NCBI GenBank assembly: GCA_016783715.1
Contig: JADHWA010000002.1
Coordinates: forward strand, 1-49,694
DNA: 49,694 nucleotides
Reading direction: 5' to 3'
Source of the DNA: Candidatus Omnitrophota bacterium
GTDB lineage: Bacteria > Omnitrophota > Gorgyraeia > Gygaellales > Profunditerraquicolaceae
The translations under genes were made by a program, and so were the position numbers. The notes under the pieces are model-generated. The model was given only the letters and a program-made list of their open reading frames with translations. It had not been told where the DNA came from and did no database searches. This document shows positions 2,840-38,387 of the stretch, piece after piece (the stretch's first letter is position 1; each line of letters opens with the position of its first letter).

Positions 2840-3927
2840 AGCGTTATATACTAAAATCAGTAGTCTCAGTATTTCTGTTGTGCCTTACGGTCTTTATCTG
2901 CCTCTATGTGATCATTGACCTCTTCAGTAACATCGGGGATATCCTTACGCAGAATTCAAGTTTTCAGATCATCCTCAGATACTACCTATCGTATTTGCCG
3001 ATCATCTTTACACAGGTCTCTCCGATCTGCTGCCTCCTGGCAACCCTCTATGCCTTCGGAGGGCTCAACCGCGATAATGAAATCATCGCTATGCGTTCTG
3101 CCGGCCTAAGCGTCATCCAGATAGCTAAAGCCGTGATTATCTTCGGTGCCATCGTCAGCACTCTTGTGTTCCTGGTCACCGACAGATTTGTTCCGCAGTC
3201 ACTGGCGCTAAACCTAAGGATTAAGGAACAAATAGAGAGCGGAAAACAATCCTCTATGGACAAGCGAAATGCCCCCATAAACAACCTCTGCATGTATGGG
3301 ATGAGAAACCGGCTATTTTTTATCAGTAAGTTTTCCCCCGCCACAGGGATCATGGAGGGAATAACCATTCTTGAACATGACAATCATCAGAATCTTACCA
3401 AAAAGATTGTGGCTAATAGGGGTGAGCATCTCGACGGACTCTGGTATTTTCAACAGGTAATAACTTATAACTTTGGCCTGGATGGCCAGACCAAGGGTGA
3501 GCCGCGCTATCTGGAAGAAGAGATTATGGCCATACCGGAGTCCCCCAAGCAATTCCTCGCCCACAGACAGAGGCCCGATCATATGACTATAGTCCAGCTG
3601 GATGAATACATCTGGAAGTTATCGAAAAGCGGTGCCACATCGGTAGTTAAAAACCTTAAAGTCGACCTCTGGCAGAGATTTACCGCGCCTCTTACAAGCT
3701 TTATTATTATCTTTCTGGGTATCCCCTTTGCCCTGAGGATGAGAAAACGGGCAACCGGACTTTCTTCGCTGGGGTTATCGATTATGGTGGGATTTCTGTA
3801 TTATGTGTTAAATTCGGTGAGCGTCGCTTTCGGTTACGCAGGTTACCTGCCGCCTTTATTGGCCACAAGCCTAAGCCATATCATAGCCTTCAGTGTCAGC
3901 CTCTACCTGATCTACTCACTCCCCTAA
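2827..3927 (+). CDS. lptG: LptF/LptG family LPS export permease
   Basis: MRILERYILKSV start at 2827 overlaps the lptF stop. RDNEIIAMRSAGLS motif. Same fold as the upstream paralog. Confidence 0.75.
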   Translation: MRILERYILKSVVSVFLLCLTVFICLYVIIDLFSNIGDILTQNSSFQIILRYYLSYLPIIFTQVSPICCLLATLYAFGGLNRDNEIIAMRSAGLSVIQIAKAVIIFGAIVSTLVFLVTDRFVPQSLALNLRIKEQIESGKQSSMDKRNAPINNLCMYGMRNRLFFISKFSPATGIMEGITILEHDNHQNLTKKIVANRGEHLDGLWYFQQVITYNFGLDGQTKGEPRYLEEEIMAIPESPKQFLAHRQRPDHMTIVQLDEYIWKLSKSGATSVVKNLKVDLWQRFTAPLTSFIIIFLGIPFALRMRKRATGLSSLGLSIMVGFLYYVLNSVSVAFGYAGYLPPLLATSLSHIIAFSVSLYLIYSLP

Positions 3928-5048: not shown

Positions 5049-5445
5049 GTCATTGCGAGGGCTTCAGCCCGAAGCAATCTCATCATATAAATCTCTAAAT
5101 TCCGGATTTATAATCTTTATCAATTTAATCTTCTTTTCCCTAGAACCACCTTTAATCTGCTTCTCGCGAGTAATTGCACTTTCAATATTGTCAGATACTT
5201 CGTAATATACTAATTTATTCACATTATATTTTTTACTAAATCCGTCTATCAATTTATGCTTGTGTTCGTATATCCTCTTTTGTAAATCACTGGTAACTCC
5301 CGTATAGATAACACTATTTCTCTTGTTCATCATTATGTACACATAACCTTGCTTATATTCTGTCATATTGTTTTTAGATTGCTTCCTGCTTCGGCTTTGC
5401 CTCGCAGTCGCAATGACGAAAGGGGTGGCGCTTCGCAATGACGAG
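5049..5445. mobile_element. GIY-YIG nuclease cassette bracketed by imperfect inverted repeats
   Basis: Left arm is GTCATTGCGAGGGCTTCAGCCCGAAGCAATC (5049-5079). Right arm is GATTGCTTCCTGCTTCGGCTTTGCCTCGCAGTCGCAATGAC (5377-5417). A second TCGCAATGACGA copy lies at 5432-5443. Confidence 0.5.
5064..5366 (-). CDS. GIY-YIG nuclease family protein
   Basis: MTEYKQGYVYIMMNKRNSVIYTGVTSDLQKRIYEHK is the GIY...YTG motif block. Start set at ATG 5366 because the longer ORF reads through the repeat arm. Confidence 0.8.
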   Translation of the reverse strand: MTEYKQGYVYIMMNKRNSVIYTGVTSDLQKRIYEHKHKLIDGFSKKYNVNKLVYYEVSDNIESAITREKQIKGGSREKKIKLIKIINPEFRDLYDEIASG

Positions 5446-5454
5446 TATCTTCCT

Positions 5455-6129
5455 TCACCTTATTTGACATTCTTTAGGATAAAGATATATCGGTTTAATC
5501 TTGGAGCTATCGCAAAACTTTCCCTCTTTAATCCTCTCCTGCGCCAGTCTCACCAATTGATTTGCCTTCGGATACCAATAATCCTTATCCAGGAGAGTCA
5601 TCCCCTTAGAATTCCGGTGTAATTCTTCTAAGCAGCACTCCAGACCGTCTCCCAATATAATACTCCCGGACCTGACTTCTTTGAAAAACTTCTTTTTTGT
5701 CGCCAGCCTGTAAGGAATCATCCTGCGCAGACGGCTGTTTACTTTTGCGTATATACTGTAATATAGGAGTCCTCTTCTGGCGTCAAGCACAGGGACTATT
5801 TCTTTACGGCTAAACTCTTTGGGTGCATTACGGGCTAAAATATCCAGAGTCGATATACCCACTACCGGCTGATTTTTGGCAAAGGCCATCCCCTTAATCG
5901 TAGAGACCCCGATACGCACTCCGGTGAATGAACCCGGTCCCAATCCGCAGGCAAAATAGTCTATCTCTTGAATTTTCCACCCCAACGCCCCAATCACTCT
6001 TTTAATCGTCGGAGCTAAAAGAGAGGAGTGCTTCCTGCCTAAATCAATATTATAGTCATAAAACTTCTCCTCCCCATACAGCCCCAAGGTAAGGAACTTG
6101 GTGGAGGTATCAAGTGCCAATATCTTCAT
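5455..6129 (-). CDS. tsaB: tRNA t6A37 threonylcarbamoyl transfer protein TsaB
   Basis: MKILALDTST start, GPGSFTGVRIG motif, and position after tsaE. Confidence 0.85.
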   Translation of the reverse strand: MKILALDTSTKFLTLGLYGEEKFYDYNIDLGRKHSSLLAPTIKRVIGALGWKIQEIDYFACGLGPGSFTGVRIGVSTIKGMAFAKNQPVVGISTLDILARNAPKEFSRKEIVPVLDARRGLLYYSIYAKVNSRLRRMIPYRLATKKKFFKEVRSGSIILGDGLECCLEELHRNSKGMTLLDKDYWYPKANQLVRLAQERIKEGKFCDSSKIKPIYLYPKECQIR

Positions 6130-7711: not shown

Positions 7712-8764
7712 CTATTTTTTAGGCTTTTTAAGCAATCTCTTTATATTGCTTGCAAAAGGCGGCCTGATCACTCCTCTATCGGTTATAATAGCGCTGATCA
7801 ATTTATGCGGCGTTACATCAAATGCAGGGTTAAAAACCTTTACTCCTTTTGCGGCTATCGGTTTTTTAAAGAAAAGGGTAGTCACCTCATACCCTCTGCG
7901 CTGTTCGATCGGGATACCCTGGCCGTCTCTTATATCTAAATCAAATGTGGAGACTGGAGCTGCGATATAAAAAGGTATCCTGTGATACCGGGCAAGTACA
8001 GCCAAGCTATATGTCCCGATCTTATTGGCGGTATCACCGTTTGCGGCGATCCTGTCAGCCCCGGCGATGATCTTATCCACTCTGCGCTCTTTCATAAGTG
8101 TTGCGGCCATATTATCGCAGAGTAGCGTCACCGGCACCCTGTTCTTCTTTAACTCCCAGGTGGTAAGCCTGGCACCCTGAAGCAGGGGCCGGGTCTCACA
8201 GGCAAAAACCTCTATATTTTTCTTTAGTTGGGCAGCCCGATAAATCACACCCAGGGCAGTGCCATAATCAATCGTGGCCAGGATCCCGGCATTACAGACA
8301 GTCAATATAGAATCATTCTTTTTAATCAATGCTGCACCGTAGCTGCCGATCCTTCGGCAAGTGGCCATATCTACTTTGACAATCCTCTCTGCTTCCTTAA
8401 AGATCAGATTCTTGATCTCTGAAACAGTCTTTGAGCTGTTGCTTAAGGCGATAGCGCAGGTTCGCTCTATCCCCCAGAAGAGATTTCTGGCCGTCGGCCG
8501 TGATGATCCGATATACCTGGCAGCCTTCTCTAATTCTCTGCTGAACTGCTTAAAACTTTTGGCCCGGGAATCCCGCACCGCCAGATACATCCCGAGTGCT
8601 GCCGCAGCACCTAAGGCCGGAGCCCCCCGCACCTTCAGGAGTTTTATCGCCTGCTGTAATTGCTTTATATTATTTATGTATAAATAAACTAAGCTGTTCG
8701 GGAGTTTGGTCTGATCGATGATCTTGATCTTATTTTTTTCCCAGGTGATCGTTTTTAGTCCCAT
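7712..8764 (-). CDS. mtnA: S-methyl-5-thioribose-1-phosphate isomerase
   Basis: eIF-2B alpha/beta/delta family. VRGAPALGAAAA, ETRPLLQGARLTTWEL and GADRIAANGDTANKIGTY motifs. Confidence 0.85.
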   Translation of the reverse strand: MGLKTITWEKNKIKIIDQTKLPNSLVYLYINNIKQLQQAIKLLKVRGAPALGAAAALGMYLAVRDSRAKSFKQFSRELEKAARYIGSSRPTARNLFWGIERTCAIALSNSSKTVSEIKNLIFKEAERIVKVDMATCRRIGSYGAALIKKNDSILTVCNAGILATIDYGTALGVIYRAAQLKKNIEVFACETRPLLQGARLTTWELKKNRVPVTLLCDNMAATLMKERRVDKIIAGADRIAANGDTANKIGTYSLAVLARYHRIPFYIAAPVSTFDLDIRDGQGIPIEQRRGYEVTTLFFKKPIAAKGVKVFNPAFDVTPHKLISAIITDRGVIRPPFASNIKRLLKKPKK

Positions 8765-8795
8765 TTCTTATGCTACTCCTCCTTCCCACCCTATC

Positions 8796-8834
8796 CGCTC
8801 CGGTATCGGATAACCACTATCCGATACCGGAGCG
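8796..8834. repeat. perfect 17-bp-stem palindromic hairpin (CCGGTATCGG family)
   Basis: CGCTCCGGTATCGGATA (8796-8812), loop ACCAC, TATCCGATACCGGAGCG (8818-8834). Confidence 0.7.
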
Positions 8835-8842
8835 TAAAAGGC

Positions 8843-17774: not shown

Positions 17775-17978
17775 CTTTACTTCTCCCTGATGTAACCCCT
17801 GGATGAAAATCATGGGTTACATCTGATTACTGAGATTATCTCAGATTACAAAGATTATATGCGTCGAGCCTCTTATCAAGTTTTATCTTTAGAAAATTAA
17901 TCGCTGTAATCTTTTTTTCCCGCGAAGCGGGATCCCGCTATATGTTTTCTTTGATTTGGTGCGGGAAAATCAGTGTAA

Positions 17979-18485
17979 TCAGACATCCTTACTTTTTTCT
18001 TTATTGGATGTCTTGACTAATGTAGCTATGGCAAAACTGGCGATCGCCTGCTGTTGGCCGATCTCGCCTAATTTTTCTGAGGTCTTTCCCTTAATGCTGA
18101 CCCTCTCAACCCCTATCTCTAAAACCCCCGCTATCCTCCCCTGCATCTGCTTTTTGAATGGAAGAATCTTCGGCTCCTCGGCTATAACTATTGCATCAAT
18201 ATTATTAATCAGGAACTTTTTTCCTTTTACAATCTCATAGGTCCTCTCCAGCAGCTCGACCCCGGTGATATTTGCATATTTAGGGTCAGTGTCAGGAAAG
18301 TGCTCTCCGATATCACCCTCGGATATTGCCCCCAGGAGCGCATCGGCTATGGCGTGTATCAGCACATCGGCATCAGAGTGGCCAAATAGGCCCTTAATAA
18401 AAGGAATCTCCACGCCCCCTAGAAAGAGCTTGCGGTCCTCAACCAGCCGATGCATATCGTATCCTATGCCGCTGCGATATTCCAT
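17979..18485 (-). CDS. ispF: 2-C-methyl-D-erythritol 2,4-cyclodiphosphate synthase
   Basis: GIGYDMHRL and GHSDADVLIHA motifs. Confidence 0.95.
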   Translation of the reverse strand: MEYRSGIGYDMHRLVEDRKLFLGGVEIPFIKGLFGHSDADVLIHAIADALLGAISEGDIGEHFPDTDPKYANITGVELLERTYEIVKGKKFLINNIDAIVIAEEPKILPFKKQMQGRIAGVLEIGVERVSIKGKTSEKLGEIGQQQAIASFAIATLVKTSNKEKSKDV

Positions 18486-20151: not shown

Positions 20152-20162
20152 ATGATTCCTCC

Positions 20163-20263
20163 TTCAATGAGCGCATAACTTACGCGACTGCCAAGGAGCG
20201 TAAGTTATAAGCGCGAATTGATCCCGAGCCTTCCTAATTTTTTTAAAGTAGAGGCTGGGGATC
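20163..20263. repeat. modular hairpin element, copy 1 (modules A+B)
   Basis: Module A is TTCAAT-GA-GCGC-ATAACTTACGC, loop, GCGTAAGTTAT-AA-GCGC-GA-ATTGA (20163-20221). Module B is GATCCCGAGCCT/AGGCTGGGGATC (20220-20263). Confidence 0.8.
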
Positions 20264-22249: not shown

Positions 22250-22261
22250 ATGATTCCTCCC

Positions 22262-22486
22262 TTCAATAAGCAGATAACTTACGGAGTGAAATGACGTAAG
22301 TTATAGTCCCGCCCTTTTGTTAAAATTTAGTTTATCAATCCGTCCCAGCCCAAAAGGGCGGGACGTCTGCGCATTGAACCCCCCACCACTTTTTAATAAA
22401 AGTCTAAAAATAAAATTAGCGATCTCTAATCTCTCTGTGTTTAATTCCCCTCGCCTACTCTTTCTCTAAAAAGTGGTGGGGGGTCA
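22262..22486. repeat. modular hairpin element, copy 2 (module A with inserted hairpin, plus long module B)
   Basis: TTCAAT at 22262 and ATTGAA ending at 22378. Inserted 14-bp hairpin at 22306-22364. 17-bp inverted repeat CCCCCCACCACTTTTTA at 22379-22395 and 22467-22483. Confidence 0.85.
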
Positions 22487-22487
22487 T

Positions 22488-32388: not shown

Positions 32389-32536
32389 TCAAGTAATTGA
32401 GGAATTGAGGTGTTTTTCCACACCCCCTCATCCTGAGGAGCGAAGCGACGAAGGATCTCATGAGATCCTTTAGCCCTTCGGGCTTCAGGATGACCAGTCG
32501 GGGATAATAAAAAACTCCCCGACTGGTCAAGTAATT
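32389..32536. mobile_element. MITE-like triple-hairpin insertion flanked by a 10-bp direct repeat TCAAGTAATT
   Basis: Direct repeats at 32389-32398 and 32527-32536. Internal hairpins at 32409-32424, 32429-32492 (64-nt palindrome) and 32494-32526 (11-bp stem). Confidence 0.5.
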
Positions 32537-32562
32537 ATATAGTAGAATTATACTTATGTCAA
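32534..32562 (-). promoter_or_regulatory. perfect consensus sigma70 promoter upstream of lysS
   Basis: Minus strand reads TTGACA (32562-32557), 17 nt, TATAAT (32539-32534). Confidence 0.6.
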
Positions 32563-32642: not shown

Positions 32643-33608
32643 CTATTTATATTCGGAGAGTCTCTTGATGCGTTTGAGCATGTTCGGGTGGGTACTTAAG
32701 AGCTCCAGCATCCTGTCACCAAATCCTAAATGGATATTCTTTTGACTAAGCTCCTGGAGTTCGTGGCGATCGATCGTTCCGCTCTTATCTAAATCAAGTT
32801 GGCTCAATTCTCGGATCTCACCCAGCGCCTTTGAAGGATCATTAAGGAAGAATGCCTTAAGCCCCTCAACCTCCTTCAACGATTCCTTAGGCATGCGCGC
32901 TGCCCCGTAGACCAGCTTGTAGAGGCTTGAGGCCAGCGCTGTCGGATTATTACCTAAGGCCACCGCGCCTCTATCGGCAAAATACTCCCTGATGCGCGAG
33001 GCATAAAGCACCAGGAGGTTGGTGAGAAAATAAAATAAAAACGCCGCCATTCCGATCAGGATCGTATTGCCGCCTGAGCGGTCGCGCCTGCGCCCGAAAA
33101 ATAAAAAATGCCAGGCCAGCCGGTACATAATCATCGGGATAACCGATAGCAGAGTGATGGTCAAAACATCGCGGTTCTTCAAATGACTAATCTCATGCCC
33201 CAGGACAGCCCGCAGCTCTACATCACTCAATAAGCTGATGATCCCTGCGGTAACACAGACTCTTCCATCTTTTATACCCCTTCCGAAGGCAAATGCGTTA
33301 GGAAGGTTAATCTGGGCAATACCGATTCGCGGTGTAGGTATCCTGGCTCCAAGCGCCAACTCTTCCACCAATTGATATAGCCGCGGATAGTCTTCTCTCT
33401 TGACATATTTCACCCGCATCGTCCATTCGACGATCTTGGGCCCCACCATATACTGGATAAACATGATCACAACCGACAAGACCAGGTAGAAATAGAGGCT
33501 GGTTATATGGAGAAACTGCACGCCGATAACCGTAAAGATCGCATAGATTAATCCAAACAGTACTGCCATCAATAACCATAATCTTACATGCAACAACCAG
33601 ATACCCAA
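32643..33608 (-). CDS. htpX: M48 family zinc metalloprotease HtpX with an EF-hand-like loop
   Basis: HEISHL zinc motif, four TM segments, C-terminal STHPNMLKRI. TTG start 5 nt after a GAAGGGGG SD. Confidence 0.85.
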   Translation of the reverse strand: MGIWLLHVRLWLLMAVLFGLIYAIFTVIGVQFLHITSLYFYLVLSVVIMFIQYMVGPKIVEWTMRVKYVKREDYPRLYQLVEELALGARIPTPRIGIAQINLPNAFAFGRGIKDGRVCVTAGIISLLSDVELRAVLGHEISHLKNRDVLTITLLSVIPMIMYRLAWHFLFFGRRRDRSGGNTILIGMAAFLFYFLTNLLVLYASRIREYFADRGAVALGNNPTALASSLYKLVYGAARMPKESLKEVEGLKAFFLNDPSKALGEIRELSQLDLDKSGTIDRHELQELSQKNIHLGFGDRMLELLSTHPNMLKRIKRLSEYK

Positions 33609-33618
33609 TTAAACCCCC

Positions 33619-33834
33619 TTCAATGAACACATAATTTACGATCCGCCGCAGGCGGAGAGTAAATTATATGTGTGAATTGAACCCCCCACCACTTTTTAAT
33701 AAAAGTCTAAAAAATAAAATTAACGATACAACTAACTACTTTATATTAAATAAATCCCGCCACCCACTCCTTCTCTAAAAAGTGGTGGGGGGTCAAATTC
33801 GGCCATCGAACTTACGTTACCGTAAGTTCGGGCC
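33619..33834. repeat. modular hairpin element, copy 3 (modules A+B+C)
   Basis: Module A at 33619-33681. Module B is the 17-bp inverted repeat at 33682-33698 and 33776-33792. AAATTCGG at 33795-33802. Module C hairpin at 33801-33834. Confidence 0.85.
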
Positions 33835-34245
33835 TCATTTGACTGTTCCCTTGACCACAAACTTTGATATGGGCTCTTCTGGATCGTCGGTAATCACATA
33901 GATGTGCTGCTTGACCACCCCGGAATACCCCTTACTGTTAAACTTCACATCTAAAGAGGTGCTCTCGCCGACAGAAAGCAAGCGCTTCTTGACATCAGAA
34001 ACCGTACAGCCGCAGCTTGTATTTACATCCTTGACCTGGAGATCTCTCTCTGTTGTGTTCTTAAATATAAACTCATGCTTTAATACATCCCCCTCCCTTA
34101 CCTGGCCAAAATCCCAGAAGTCAGCGATATCTGAGAGAGGCGAGGGACTGGTAGGCAGGGACTTCTGTCCCCCGGCACAACCGAAAAACAGACAACTTAT
34201 CATCGCTATTAATATAACTGAGACCTGCGGTCTGCCTAACATCAA
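33835..34245 (-). CDS. DUF1573 domain protein (probable lipoprotein)
   Basis: Lipobox-like LFFGCAG. DFGQV...G....H.F.F.N......V..SCGCT is the DUF1573 signature. Confidence 0.8.
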   Translation of the reverse strand: MMLGRPQVSVILIAMISCLFFGCAGGQKSLPTSPSPLSDIADFWDFGQVREGDVLKHEFIFKNTTERDLQVKDVNTSCGCTVSDVKKRLLSVGESTSLDVKFNSKGYSGVVKQHIYVITDDPEEPISKFVVKGTVK

Positions 34246-36581: not shown

Positions 36582-36609
36582 ATTATATTGGAAAATCTAT
36601 TGTTGTCAA
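36582..36609 (-). promoter_or_regulatory. sigma70-type promoter of the PagL-like gene (leaderless configuration)
   Basis: Minus strand reads TTGACA (36609-36604), 16 nt, TATAAT (36587-36582), 7 nt, ATG (36574). Confidence 0.55.
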
Positions 36610-38063: not shown

Positions 38064-38093
38064 TTTTTCCTTTTAAGCTTAACCTAACCCTAC

Positions 38094-38309
38094 TTCAATA
38101 AGCACATCACTTAGCGAGTGCTAACGAAGCTAAGTGATAAGTGCGCATTGAACCCTGCACCCAAACAAGTAACAGTAGATACAAAACTGGGTGCGGGGTA
38201 AATTCGGGCACGGCCCATGGCTTACGTCATTTTCCCGCCAATCATTTACTTGTATCGCGGGATCCCGCCTCGATTCTATTTAGAATGGCGGGACATTCCG
38301 TAAGTCATG
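38094..38309. repeat. modular hairpin element, copy 4 (modules A+B+extended C)
   Basis: Module A at 38094-38152. Module B at 38152-38163 and 38188-38199. AAATTCGG at 38200-38207. Module C outer stem at 38216-38226 and 38299-38309, enclosing TCCCGCC/GGCGGGA and the palindrome GCGGGATCCCGC. Confidence 0.8.
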
Positions 38310-38318
38310 CCCTCACTT

Positions 38319-38346
38319 ATGATAATATAAATGCGCGATAATTCAA
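38319..38346 (-). promoter_or_regulatory. candidate promoter upstream of element copy 4 and the HD-GYP gene
   Basis: Minus strand reads TTGAAT (38346-38341), 16 nt, TATCAT (38324-38319). Confidence 0.35.
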
Positions 38347-38387
38347 ATATTTTTGCGACCGAACACTCCCCCAGTTAATACACTCTC

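Follow-up and report, generated by a model that had tools for sequence, protein, structure and literature searches.

A composite hairpin insert between DUF1573 and htpX

The stretch analysed here, hereafter the window, comprises 49,694 nt of contig JADHWA010000002.1 from a Candidatus Omnitrophota bacterium (assembly GCA_016783715.1). Between a DUF1573 gene and htpX, it carries a hairpin-rich insert of 223 nt (33619-33841, minus strand), the third of four related copies in the window (copy 3). The flanking genes in the window were identified by Pfam, and the HtpX and RadA homologues bear Candidatus Omnitrophota names. Read along the mRNA strand, which is the minus strand, the DUF1573 gene ends with GTC AAA TGA, and copy 3 follows as module C, the linker GAATT, module B and module A, after which AGGGGG-TTTAA-TTG holds a Shine-Dalgarno (SD) sequence and the htpX start. 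A preliminary description of this DNA had proposed these three modules, and by sequence inspection they lie where it placed them; as a whole, its interpretation is partly supported by the results given below.

Module A (33620-33680, minus strand) reads TCAAT-TC-ACAC-AT-ATAATTTAC-TC-(TCCGCC TGC GGCGGA)-TC-GTAAATTAT-GTGT-TC-ATTGA on the mRNA strand. It is made up of a stem P1 (TCAAT/ATTGA), a UC/UC internal loop, a stem P2 (ACAC/GTGT), an AT bulge, a stem P3 (ATAATTTAC/GTAAATTAT), another UC/UC loop and the apical hairpin TCCGCC-TGC-GGCGGA; all the features noticed earlier are present, namely a GA/GA internal loop (which is UC/UC in mRNA sense), an AT bulge and TCCGCC-GCA-GGCGGA at the apex. A covariance model built from module A, R1, was run over the window with filters off and matched this copy at 33613-33680 with 64.3 bits (E = 8e-13).

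Module B (33682-33792, unstranded) consists of exact 17-nt inverted arms (CCCCCCACCACTTTTTA; 33682-33698 and 33776-33792) around an A+T-rich core of 77 nt, and on the mRNA strand reads TGA-CCCCCCACCACTTTTTA, the core, and TAAAAAGTGGTGGGGGG-T. The same arms occur in copy 2 (22379-22395 and 22467-22483), giving the arm four exact matches in the window against 0.10 expected at up to three mismatches. The preliminary description was correct about the arms, their presence in copies 2 and 3 and the core length, but had the core replaced in the middle relative to copy 2; the two cores align end to end with ~81% identity and small indels. The linker following the right arm, given there as AAATTCGG, is TCAAATTC and then GGCC.

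Module C directly adjoins the DUF1573 stop codon (TCA at 33835-33837 on the plus strand). Its inner hairpin at 33801-33834 reads GGCC-AT-CGAACTTACG-TTAC-CGTAAGTTCG-GGCC on the plus strand and GGCC-CGAACTTACG-GTAA-CGTAAGTTCG-AT-GGCC on the mRNA strand. This hairpin had been located correctly, but not its extent, as the match runs outward to CAAAT...ATTTG (33794-33842) and yields CAAAT-TC-GGCC-AT-CGAACTTACG-TTAC-CGTAAGTTCG-GGCC-TC-ATTTG, with an R1 match over 33794-33848 on the plus strand (35.8 bits, E = 4e-6). Instead of a relocated stem 3 of module A, as had been suggested, module C is, judged by sequence and by this model match, an inverted, degenerate homologue of the whole of module A, which makes the C-B-A unit one long imperfect palindrome. 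The TGA that stops DUF1573 comes from the outer strand of module C (TCAAATGA in mRNA sense). The predicted fold of 33609-33840 on the mRNA strand has -95.5 kcal/mol, compared with -55.1 +/- 4.4 kcal/mol for shuffled sequences (z = -9.2), and none of 200 shuffles was as good.

The C-B-A unit is absent from the closest relative (L126, a sister assembly with 87-94% nucleotide identity), where 18 nt lie between the flanking alignment blocks (by blastn block ends) and the DUF1573-htpX gap is 15 nt (...GGAAAAGTGATAAAGAGATAGAATCGGGAGGTTTAATTG), whereas the junction in the window reads ...GGAACAGTCAAATGA[223 nt]GGGGGTTTAATTG. By gene spacing, copy 3 is also absent from L127, L128 and L130. In the window, ~17 nt of native sequence, comprising the final three codons of the gene with its stop and spacer, gave way to the element, which provides DUF1573 with a new stop. 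Going by these alignments, copy 3 is a recent insertion. The SD of htpX, GGGGG (33614-33618, minus strand), directly follows ATTGAA at the end of P1 and precedes TTTAA and the TTG start; a native origin is probable, given GGGAGG-TTTAA-TTG at the empty site of L126. The adjacency of SD and ATTGAA, pointed out earlier for htpX, holds, but is not specific to htpX and is a property of the element end.

Distribution, turnover and nuclease-bearing relatives

In the window, R1 matched four module A copies, all on the minus strand (76, 68.9, 64.3 and 33 bits), plus module C of copy 3, and all four copies sit between co-directional genes. Copy 1 (20157-20263, minus strand; 76 bits) joins a short B hairpin to module A at the junction of radA and a PIN/TRAM gene. 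Copy 2 (22256-22487, minus strand) combines a B module with the arms of copy 3 and a module A that holds an extra hairpin (GTCCCGCCCTTTTG...CAAAAGGGCGGGAC), and lies between mlaD and the ABC ATPase gene upstream of it (called mlaF here). Copy 4 (38088-38387, minus strand; 68.9 bits), at the junction of a trehalose-phosphatase gene and a HAMP/HD-GYP gene, contains module A, a diverged B and a C module into which a hairpin has been inserted. No near-identical sibling of copy 3 was found among the retrieved loci, the best of which reaches ~70% identity over ~190 nt.

Empty sites are likewise seen for copy 1 and copy 2: both are missing from L253 and L254, where the gaps measure 4/3 nt and 15/24 nt, and L128 also lacks copy 2. 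In L252, whose RadA is 94% identical in amino acids, the copy 2 site holds another C module, another B type and another insert within module A, with the same rare 3' end as in the window (GCTTATTGAAGGAGGAATCATATG), and the C module at the copy 1 site is nearly identical to that of window copy 4. The different C/B set at the copy 2 site of this relative, together with the recurrence of B stem types across metagenome-assembled genomes (MAGs) and the arms that the hairpin nested in copy 2 shares with a nuclease-gene-bearing element of L068, bears out the earlier view of a modular, repeated hairpin family with recombining modules. At copy 1, native ...TGAGGAGGTAA stands on both sides and can be read as a target duplication, or else as a native remnant plus the element's own SD. 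Between L071 and L078, [C+B] is an indel flanked by TCAA, and module A is kept before porD and porA with compensatory changes; module A can therefore persist while B and C turn over. L069 carries a C-B-A unit at ispF, where the window has none.

Beyond the window, the family was searched with a 21-nt degenerate pattern from the 3' half of module A only, which gave at least 116 genome loci, 67 of them scoring at least 30 bits against the module A profile. Module A matches also carry the complementary 5' half, which the pattern left unconstrained. Among the listed titles, real module A copies come from Omnitrophota or Omnitrophica MAGs, plus MAGs labelled Planctomycet or without a taxon label; the other pattern matches (Flavobacteria, Vibrio and others) are chance matches within genes. 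A scan of viral contigs with the module A pattern gave eight matches, all due to chance and devoid of the 5' half. The consensus reads TCAAT-TC-GCRC-(bulge)-ATAACTTAYG-TC-(variable hairpin)-TC-CRTAAGTTAT-GYGC-TC-ATTGA-AGGAGG, with a subtype that has an additional hairpin at the P2/P3 junction, as in copy 2. Across 42 homologues, 96.6% of cells are paired and both sides have changed in 7 of 19 pairs (59 cells), a covariation score reached by none of 500 shuffles and with no slid register near it. An enrichment of UNCG tetraloops, considered as an RNA signature, was unsupported once the apical parts had been extracted and folded. Rfam gave no hits in the window at gathering thresholds and, in a permissive search of 33500-33950, only sub-threshold matches of miRNA-type hairpins, and literature searches on Omnitrophota hairpins, on RNA motifs with an SD and on GIY-YIG miniature inverted-repeat transposable elements (MITEs) yielded no earlier description of the module A family. 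Copy density amounts to four in the 50-kb window and two to three in several 8-kb loci.

A mini-palindrome, CCTGCCTGCCGGCAGGCAGG, was observed as an insertion in the apical loop or on the 5' side of module A in several MAGs (L078 777-852; L039, L075, L093, L155 and L244). It is absent from the orthologous copy in L071 and represents a further nested hairpin module.

The element imitates a gene junction at its ends, the left one being (T)AAATGA and the right one ATTGAAGGAGG; the mRNA strand holds the B left arm TGACCCCCCACCACTTTT and right arm AAAAGTGGTGGGGGGT, then TCAATTC...module A...TCATTGA, followed by AGGAGG, a spacer and ATG. The left end GTCAAATGA occurs in the window at DUF1573, in L069 and in L105; many metagenome copies have related ends of the (T)AAATGA type. 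As GTCAAATGA, TTAAATGA or TAA-ATGA, these left ends are the stops of unrelated genes, namely DUF1573 in the window and in L227 (where GGTTAAATGA ends the gene), ispF in L069, and radA and the ABC ATPase gene in L252 (both with TAA-ATGA). The right end ends in, or fuses with, the SD of the downstream gene. Among the 83 module A copies with a callable downstream open reading frame (ORF), 69 have an SD-like motif in the P1-to-start spacer, mostly AGGAG directly after P1, and ATG mostly follows 9-16 nt after P1; in about ten, no SD is present and the ATG lies 0-2 nt after P1, e.g. at rplB, rplK and an atpC-like gene. The SD and spacer of copy 2 arrived with the element, because its spacer AATCAT differs from native spacers. 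The downstream genes are unrelated housekeeping genes, with copies before rplB, atpC, porD and porA.

Both perfect (12/12) sigma-70 promoters of the window (TTGACA-16/17-TATAAT) lie in gaps without module A, and one of them (TTGACA-16-TATAAT, 36582-36609, minus strand) heads the unit pagL-EIIA-(403 aa)-DUF1573-(copy 3)-htpX. The elements are thus transcribed inside operons and are not promoters, and module B, which lacks a T-run, is not a canonical terminator. A promoter reading of modules A and B (TTGACA in some B stems, TATAAC in A) was rejected on inconsistent spacings and on the perfect promoters found elsewhere; an integron attC or loxP-like site (ATAAC/GTTAT words) was rejected on the loop of 4 to ~100 nt, the housekeeping neighbours and the box order.

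Metagenome contigs were scanned with the B left arm TGACCCCCCACCACTTTT, and the further copies that the preliminary description had led one to expect proved numerous, at least 120 loci, many with a full C-B-A and a core of ~75 nt. A C module lies upstream in 46 of 124 arm matches and a detectable module A downstream in 31, while 12 contain an ORF. More specifically, the arms in L192 (two copies), L166, L173, L174 and L227/L249 enclose a GIY-YIG ORF, with C upstream and module A and the host gene downstream. The ORFs between B arms encode 85-92 amino acids (...YVYVLQSKKDKSIYIGYTNDLKRR...EHN...; L192, L166, L173, L227 and L140); that of L174 was seen by tblastn alone and aligned over 81 residues. 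The GIY-YIG catalytic domain (Pfam PF01541) matched the three ORFs scanned with 45-59 bits over their whole length, and the nearest solved structures of the arm-flanked ORFs are UPF0213 proteins. Ownership of the arms by a known insertion sequence (IS) or MITE with a transposase had been raised earlier: the arms do turn out to be inverted repeats of a mobile-element-like unit, one with a GIY-YIG nuclease gene, but it is no catalogued IS family.

L227, a distant relative that is only ~71% identical to the window, has the full-length form at the same DUF1573|htpX junction; since L227 is as distant as the empty L128 and L130, the junction was occupied independently. In L068, a second arm type (CCCCGCCCTTTTGG/CCAAAAGGGCGGGG) surrounds another GIY-YIG gene, and these arms match the hairpin nested in module A of copy 2. 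The window has a GIY-YIG nuclease gene of another subfamily (5064-5366, minus strand, 100 amino acids; tblastn, PF01541 62.7 bits), flanked by inverted GTCATTGCGA repeats (5049-5058 on one side, 5408-5417 and 5433-5442 on the other) and inserted tightly, with ~15 nt to either neighbour, between alr and a gene of the TsaD family (PF00814). It shows that this genome encodes nucleases of such kind.

In addition, 4872-5097 of L252 holds the C and B of the copy 1 site, followed by more hairpins and the start of an ORF (MKYKKQGHC...), at which the contig ends; this start resembles the N-terminus of the window GIY-YIG protein (MTEYKQGYVYI). In other metagenome contigs, the same B arms occur without A and C, around a core of 32-35 nt or a GIY-YIG ORF, inside coding regions: in prepilin-like genes (L137, L152, L186, L216 and L221), in a uvrA-like ORF (L154, L165, L189 and L225) and also in L140, L143 and L160. 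A prepilin leader (KSGGG|FTLIEL) can be read from ATGACCCCCCACCACTTTT...AAAAGTGGTGGGGGG-TTTACCTTAATTGAA. The uvrA-like gene appears to be split by the arms, which contribute TGA at one end and GTG GTG GGG at the opposite end.

Interpretation, alternatives and known systems

Ssn proteins (Chenal et al. 2025) are single-domain GIY-YIG nucleases of ~94 amino acids that cut only single-stranded DNA (ssDNA), on one strand, beside hairpin repeats (PMC11893778). The ssn gene is flanked by Ssn-related motifs (SRM; NTS/dRS3 in Neisseria), of which there are hundreds of copies, and the authors point to an IS-like layout and a parallel with REP/RAYT, with mobility hypothesised and not demonstrated (PMC11893778). 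The Omnitrophota element is alike in its small single-domain GIY-YIG protein (85-92 amino acids here, ~90-100 in Ssn, the likeness here coming from size, Pfam domain and layout), in the hairpin-forming inverted repeats on both sides of the gene (here B arms abut the ORF, with C upstream and A downstream) and in its IS-like layout and, going by four copies in the 50-kb window and two to three in several 8-kb loci, probably also in having oriented repeats scattered in many copies; the arrangement around the window GIY-YIG gene is likewise similar to SRM-ssn-SRM. A looser resemblance is seen in the YGTC-hairpin-TCC at the module A apex and between TCCGCC-TGC-GGCGGA and the NTS core. Unlike an SRM, a hairpin of 20-50 nt, the Omnitrophota element is a three-module C-B-A composite of 110-320 nt that sits exactly at stop/SD junctions inside operons, and its insertion polymorphism and ORF-less derivatives are directly seen.

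Copy 3 qualifies as a MITE-like derivative because its 17-nt arms are the inverted repeats of a nuclease-encoding element. The gene-bearing form has the same B arms, C modules and module A around its GIY-YIG ORF, and copies 1, 2 and 3 are each present or absent at orthologous sites. We consider it likely that copy 3 is a recently acquired, ORF-less copy of a composite palindromic mobile element widespread in Candidatus Omnitrophota, and on our best reading it belongs, as a MITE-like member without an ORF, to a family of nuclease-associated hairpin elements that is Ssn/SRM-like and peculiar to Omnitrophota. By analogy with Ssn/SRM, the hairpins may be ssDNA recognition sites of the GIY-YIG nuclease, and gene-less copies such as copy 3 would rely on nuclease supplied in trans. 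New copies could arise via break-and-repair or template switching, in which the stop-like and SD-like ends would serve as microhomology; integration of this kind is suggested by right junctions that vary within the SD and by the lack of a clean duplication. Self-folding of the insert would keep the upstream stop and the downstream start close together, so that operon expression survives.

Several observations weigh against this interpretation. No clean target-site duplication is apparent at copy 3 when the window is compared with L126, and the SRM motif HGTCWYN(0-2)YYVSBRHN(0-5)WNVSBRGN(0-2)RNCYNB has no match on either strand of the window. The 50-kb window holds no nuclease gene of the B-arm subfamily, its own GIY-YIG gene differing in subfamily and flanking repeats, and module A is absent from two other Omnitrophota stretches of 21 kb each, so that the family is not universal in the phylum. 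Furthermore, covarying pairs show five G.U intermediates and no A.C, which, with the compensatory upkeep seen between L071 and L078, would also fit selection on RNA, and the nuclease could be a parasite of pre-existing hairpins instead of their mobiliser.

A first alternative, which we regard as possible though clearly less probable than mobile DNA, takes module A, with or without C and B, as primarily a cis-acting operon RNA element beside the ribosome-binding site (RBS), such as an RNase III-type site, a decay barrier or a device for translational coupling, with spread being secondary. Its position is fixed relative to the SD or ATG, it lies within essential operons (rplB, atpC, por), its internal loops are conserved, and the orthologous copies in L071 and L078 are kept with compensatory changes (GCGC/GCGC versus GCAC/GTGC). 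P1, P2 and P3 add up to ~21 stacked positions, roughly two helical turns, a length that can be likened to RNase III substrates. In phage T7, intercistronic RNase III sites take the form of conserved hairpins that contain internal loops and lie shortly before the next RBS; they would be a functional analogy for this alternative only, and the Omnitrophota elements are gained and lost as DNA. The sense strand has 17 G.U against 8 A.C overall. Because the sense strand, which is the G-rich strand, is the lagging-strand template here (by GC skew), this excess fits ssDNA as well as RNA, and strand asymmetry cannot separate the two. An RNA-level role of module A is possible, yet the data can be explained without one, given that these genes are expressed in close relatives that lack the module (gaps of 3-39 nt); the module-free 21-kb stretches, the physical coupling of module A to a nuclease gene and the inactivity of Ssn nucleases on RNA (PMC11893778) argue in the same direction.

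Somewhat less probable still is a spread of the hairpins by another route, with the GIY-YIG gene as a homing-endonuclease-like parasite that invades B loops and the ORF-less B copies as its empty targets. ORF-less B copies are indeed far commoner (an ORF is found in 12 of 124 arm matches) and their cores have no obvious ORF remnant, module A occurs without B (L078), and the same arms and ORF occur elsewhere without A or C. The arms are kept across two nuclease subfamilies, however, which suggests enzyme recognition, and C, B and A reached the htpX site as one unit; Ssn homologues, moreover, cut beside their own flanking hairpins (PMC11893778).

The reading of copy 3 as a MITE-like mobile element can be extended to a joint claim that we put forward tentatively, as less likely than not: an Ssn-like GIY-YIG family would drive a true ssDNA hairpin transposon in Candidatus Omnitrophota, integrating at gene junctions via stop-/SD-like microhomology, with module A co-opted as operon punctuation, its RNA structure either guiding processing or keeping the downstream start next to the upstream stop. 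If this were true, transposition would here follow a new mechanism that, by its design, does no harm to operons or even benefits them.

Mobilisation by a RAYT (a domesticated Y1 transposase of the IS200/IS605 type), as in REP/BIME (REPIN) systems, is improbable. The Omnitrophota repeats do share with such systems high-copy extragenic imperfect palindromes, inverted pairs with variable linkers (C-B-A), prolonged retention at certain sites alongside gain and loss elsewhere, and ssDNA hairpins presumably recognised by one dedicated, possibly domesticated enzyme. The gene between the repeats, however, encodes a GIY-YIG nuclease and not a Y1 (HUH) transposase, none of which was noticed beside any copy, though no systematic search was made; there is no GTAG-type 5' motif, the ends mimic a stop and an SD, and REP families are species- or genus-specific, whereas the module A family is conserved in sequence over dozens of MAGs of a phylum. 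Very improbable is a terminator-plus-promoter cassette at a transcription-unit boundary, with B and C as terminators and A as promoter or leader, to which the G+C-clamped B hairpin directly after the upstream stop and the TATAAC-like words in module A might point, since a scan gave no terminator-like site in the four copies (TTCAATT, not a T run, follows the B stems) and only weak 9/12 promoter-like sites (copy 1 SD end, copy 4 5' part, copy 3 core on the opposite strand), the 12/12 promoters of the organism lie in other gaps, copies occur within ribosomal-protein, ATP-synthase and mla operons, and variable loop lengths destroy the -35/-10 spacing.

Further parallels concern modularity and position. 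Pneumococcal BOX (A-B-C), Neisseria Correia, enterobacterial and Yersinia ERIC and mycobacterial MIRU elements are modular or operon-resident MITE-like repeats; they are co-transcribed with flanking genes and insert by stop codons or RBSs, and their RNA hairpins can affect processing and stability. The Omnitrophota element is likewise modular and sits in operons beside a stop and an RBS, but is unrelated to them in sequence, lacks a TA or other clean target duplication and has a nuclease-bearing full-length form. Rickettsia palindromic elements (RPEs) are palindromic repeats tolerated in or at protein-coding genes and read through in frame, and we know of no nuclease gene associated with them. 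The B arms inside the prepilin leader and the uvrA-like ORF of other metagenome contigs are comparable, but bring in a TGA on one flank and a GTG on the opposite flank.

It was only in 2025 that hairpin repeats were linked to small GIY-YIG nucleases, and their mobility was then hypothetical. If the present reading is correct, the filled and empty sites, the full-length and gene-less forms, the nested insertions and the module turnover between close relatives are direct comparative evidence of movement, and the stop- and RBS-imitating ends are a striking adaptation that lets an insert of 100-300 nt live between essential-operon genes of compact genomes. Module A, a high-copy structured motif of Omnitrophota MAGs that is absent from Rfam, will confuse RNA-motif searches and, because upstream ORFs run into it, gene calling. 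The nuclease-hairpin pairs are candidates for new ssDNA-specific enzymes.

Other palindromic repeats at these junctions and in the window

In L069, an unrelated palindromic repeat of ~170 nt, composed of GATTATCAGA/TCTGATAATC words (3570-3760 and 5900-6100), fills the radA|PIN and ABC-ATPase|mlaD junctions, which are the copy 1 and copy 2 sites of the window. Words related to this repeat (CTGATTAC, GTAATCAG) occur in the window gap 17813-17979. Several families of repeats seem to share a preference for particular operon junctions.

The window also holds a second, unrelated palindromic insertion of 128 nt (32399-32526), which reads CCAGTCGGGG...GTCATCCTGAAGCCC...CCTCAGGATGAGGGGG...CCTCA on the minus strand. 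It has a clean 9-bp target duplication (ATTACTTGA), is absent from L126 and sits between the -10 box of a perfect lysS promoter and the lysS ATG; through its GTCAT...ATCTCA hairpins it is similar to the repeats that flank the GIY-YIG gene of the window. In L126, which does not have this insertion, lysS starts ~12 nt after the 12/12 sigma-70 promoter (TATAATTACTTGATTATG; window 32527-32562) with no SD, and its mRNA would therefore be nearly leaderless there. The ORF prediction that starts lysS with TTG at 32530 is an artefact caused by the 128-nt element. Finally, the gap between the genes ending at 8764 and 8843 contains a palindrome (CCGCTCCGGTATCGGATA / TATCCGATACCGGAGCG; 8789-8841), with a related copy at 912-962.

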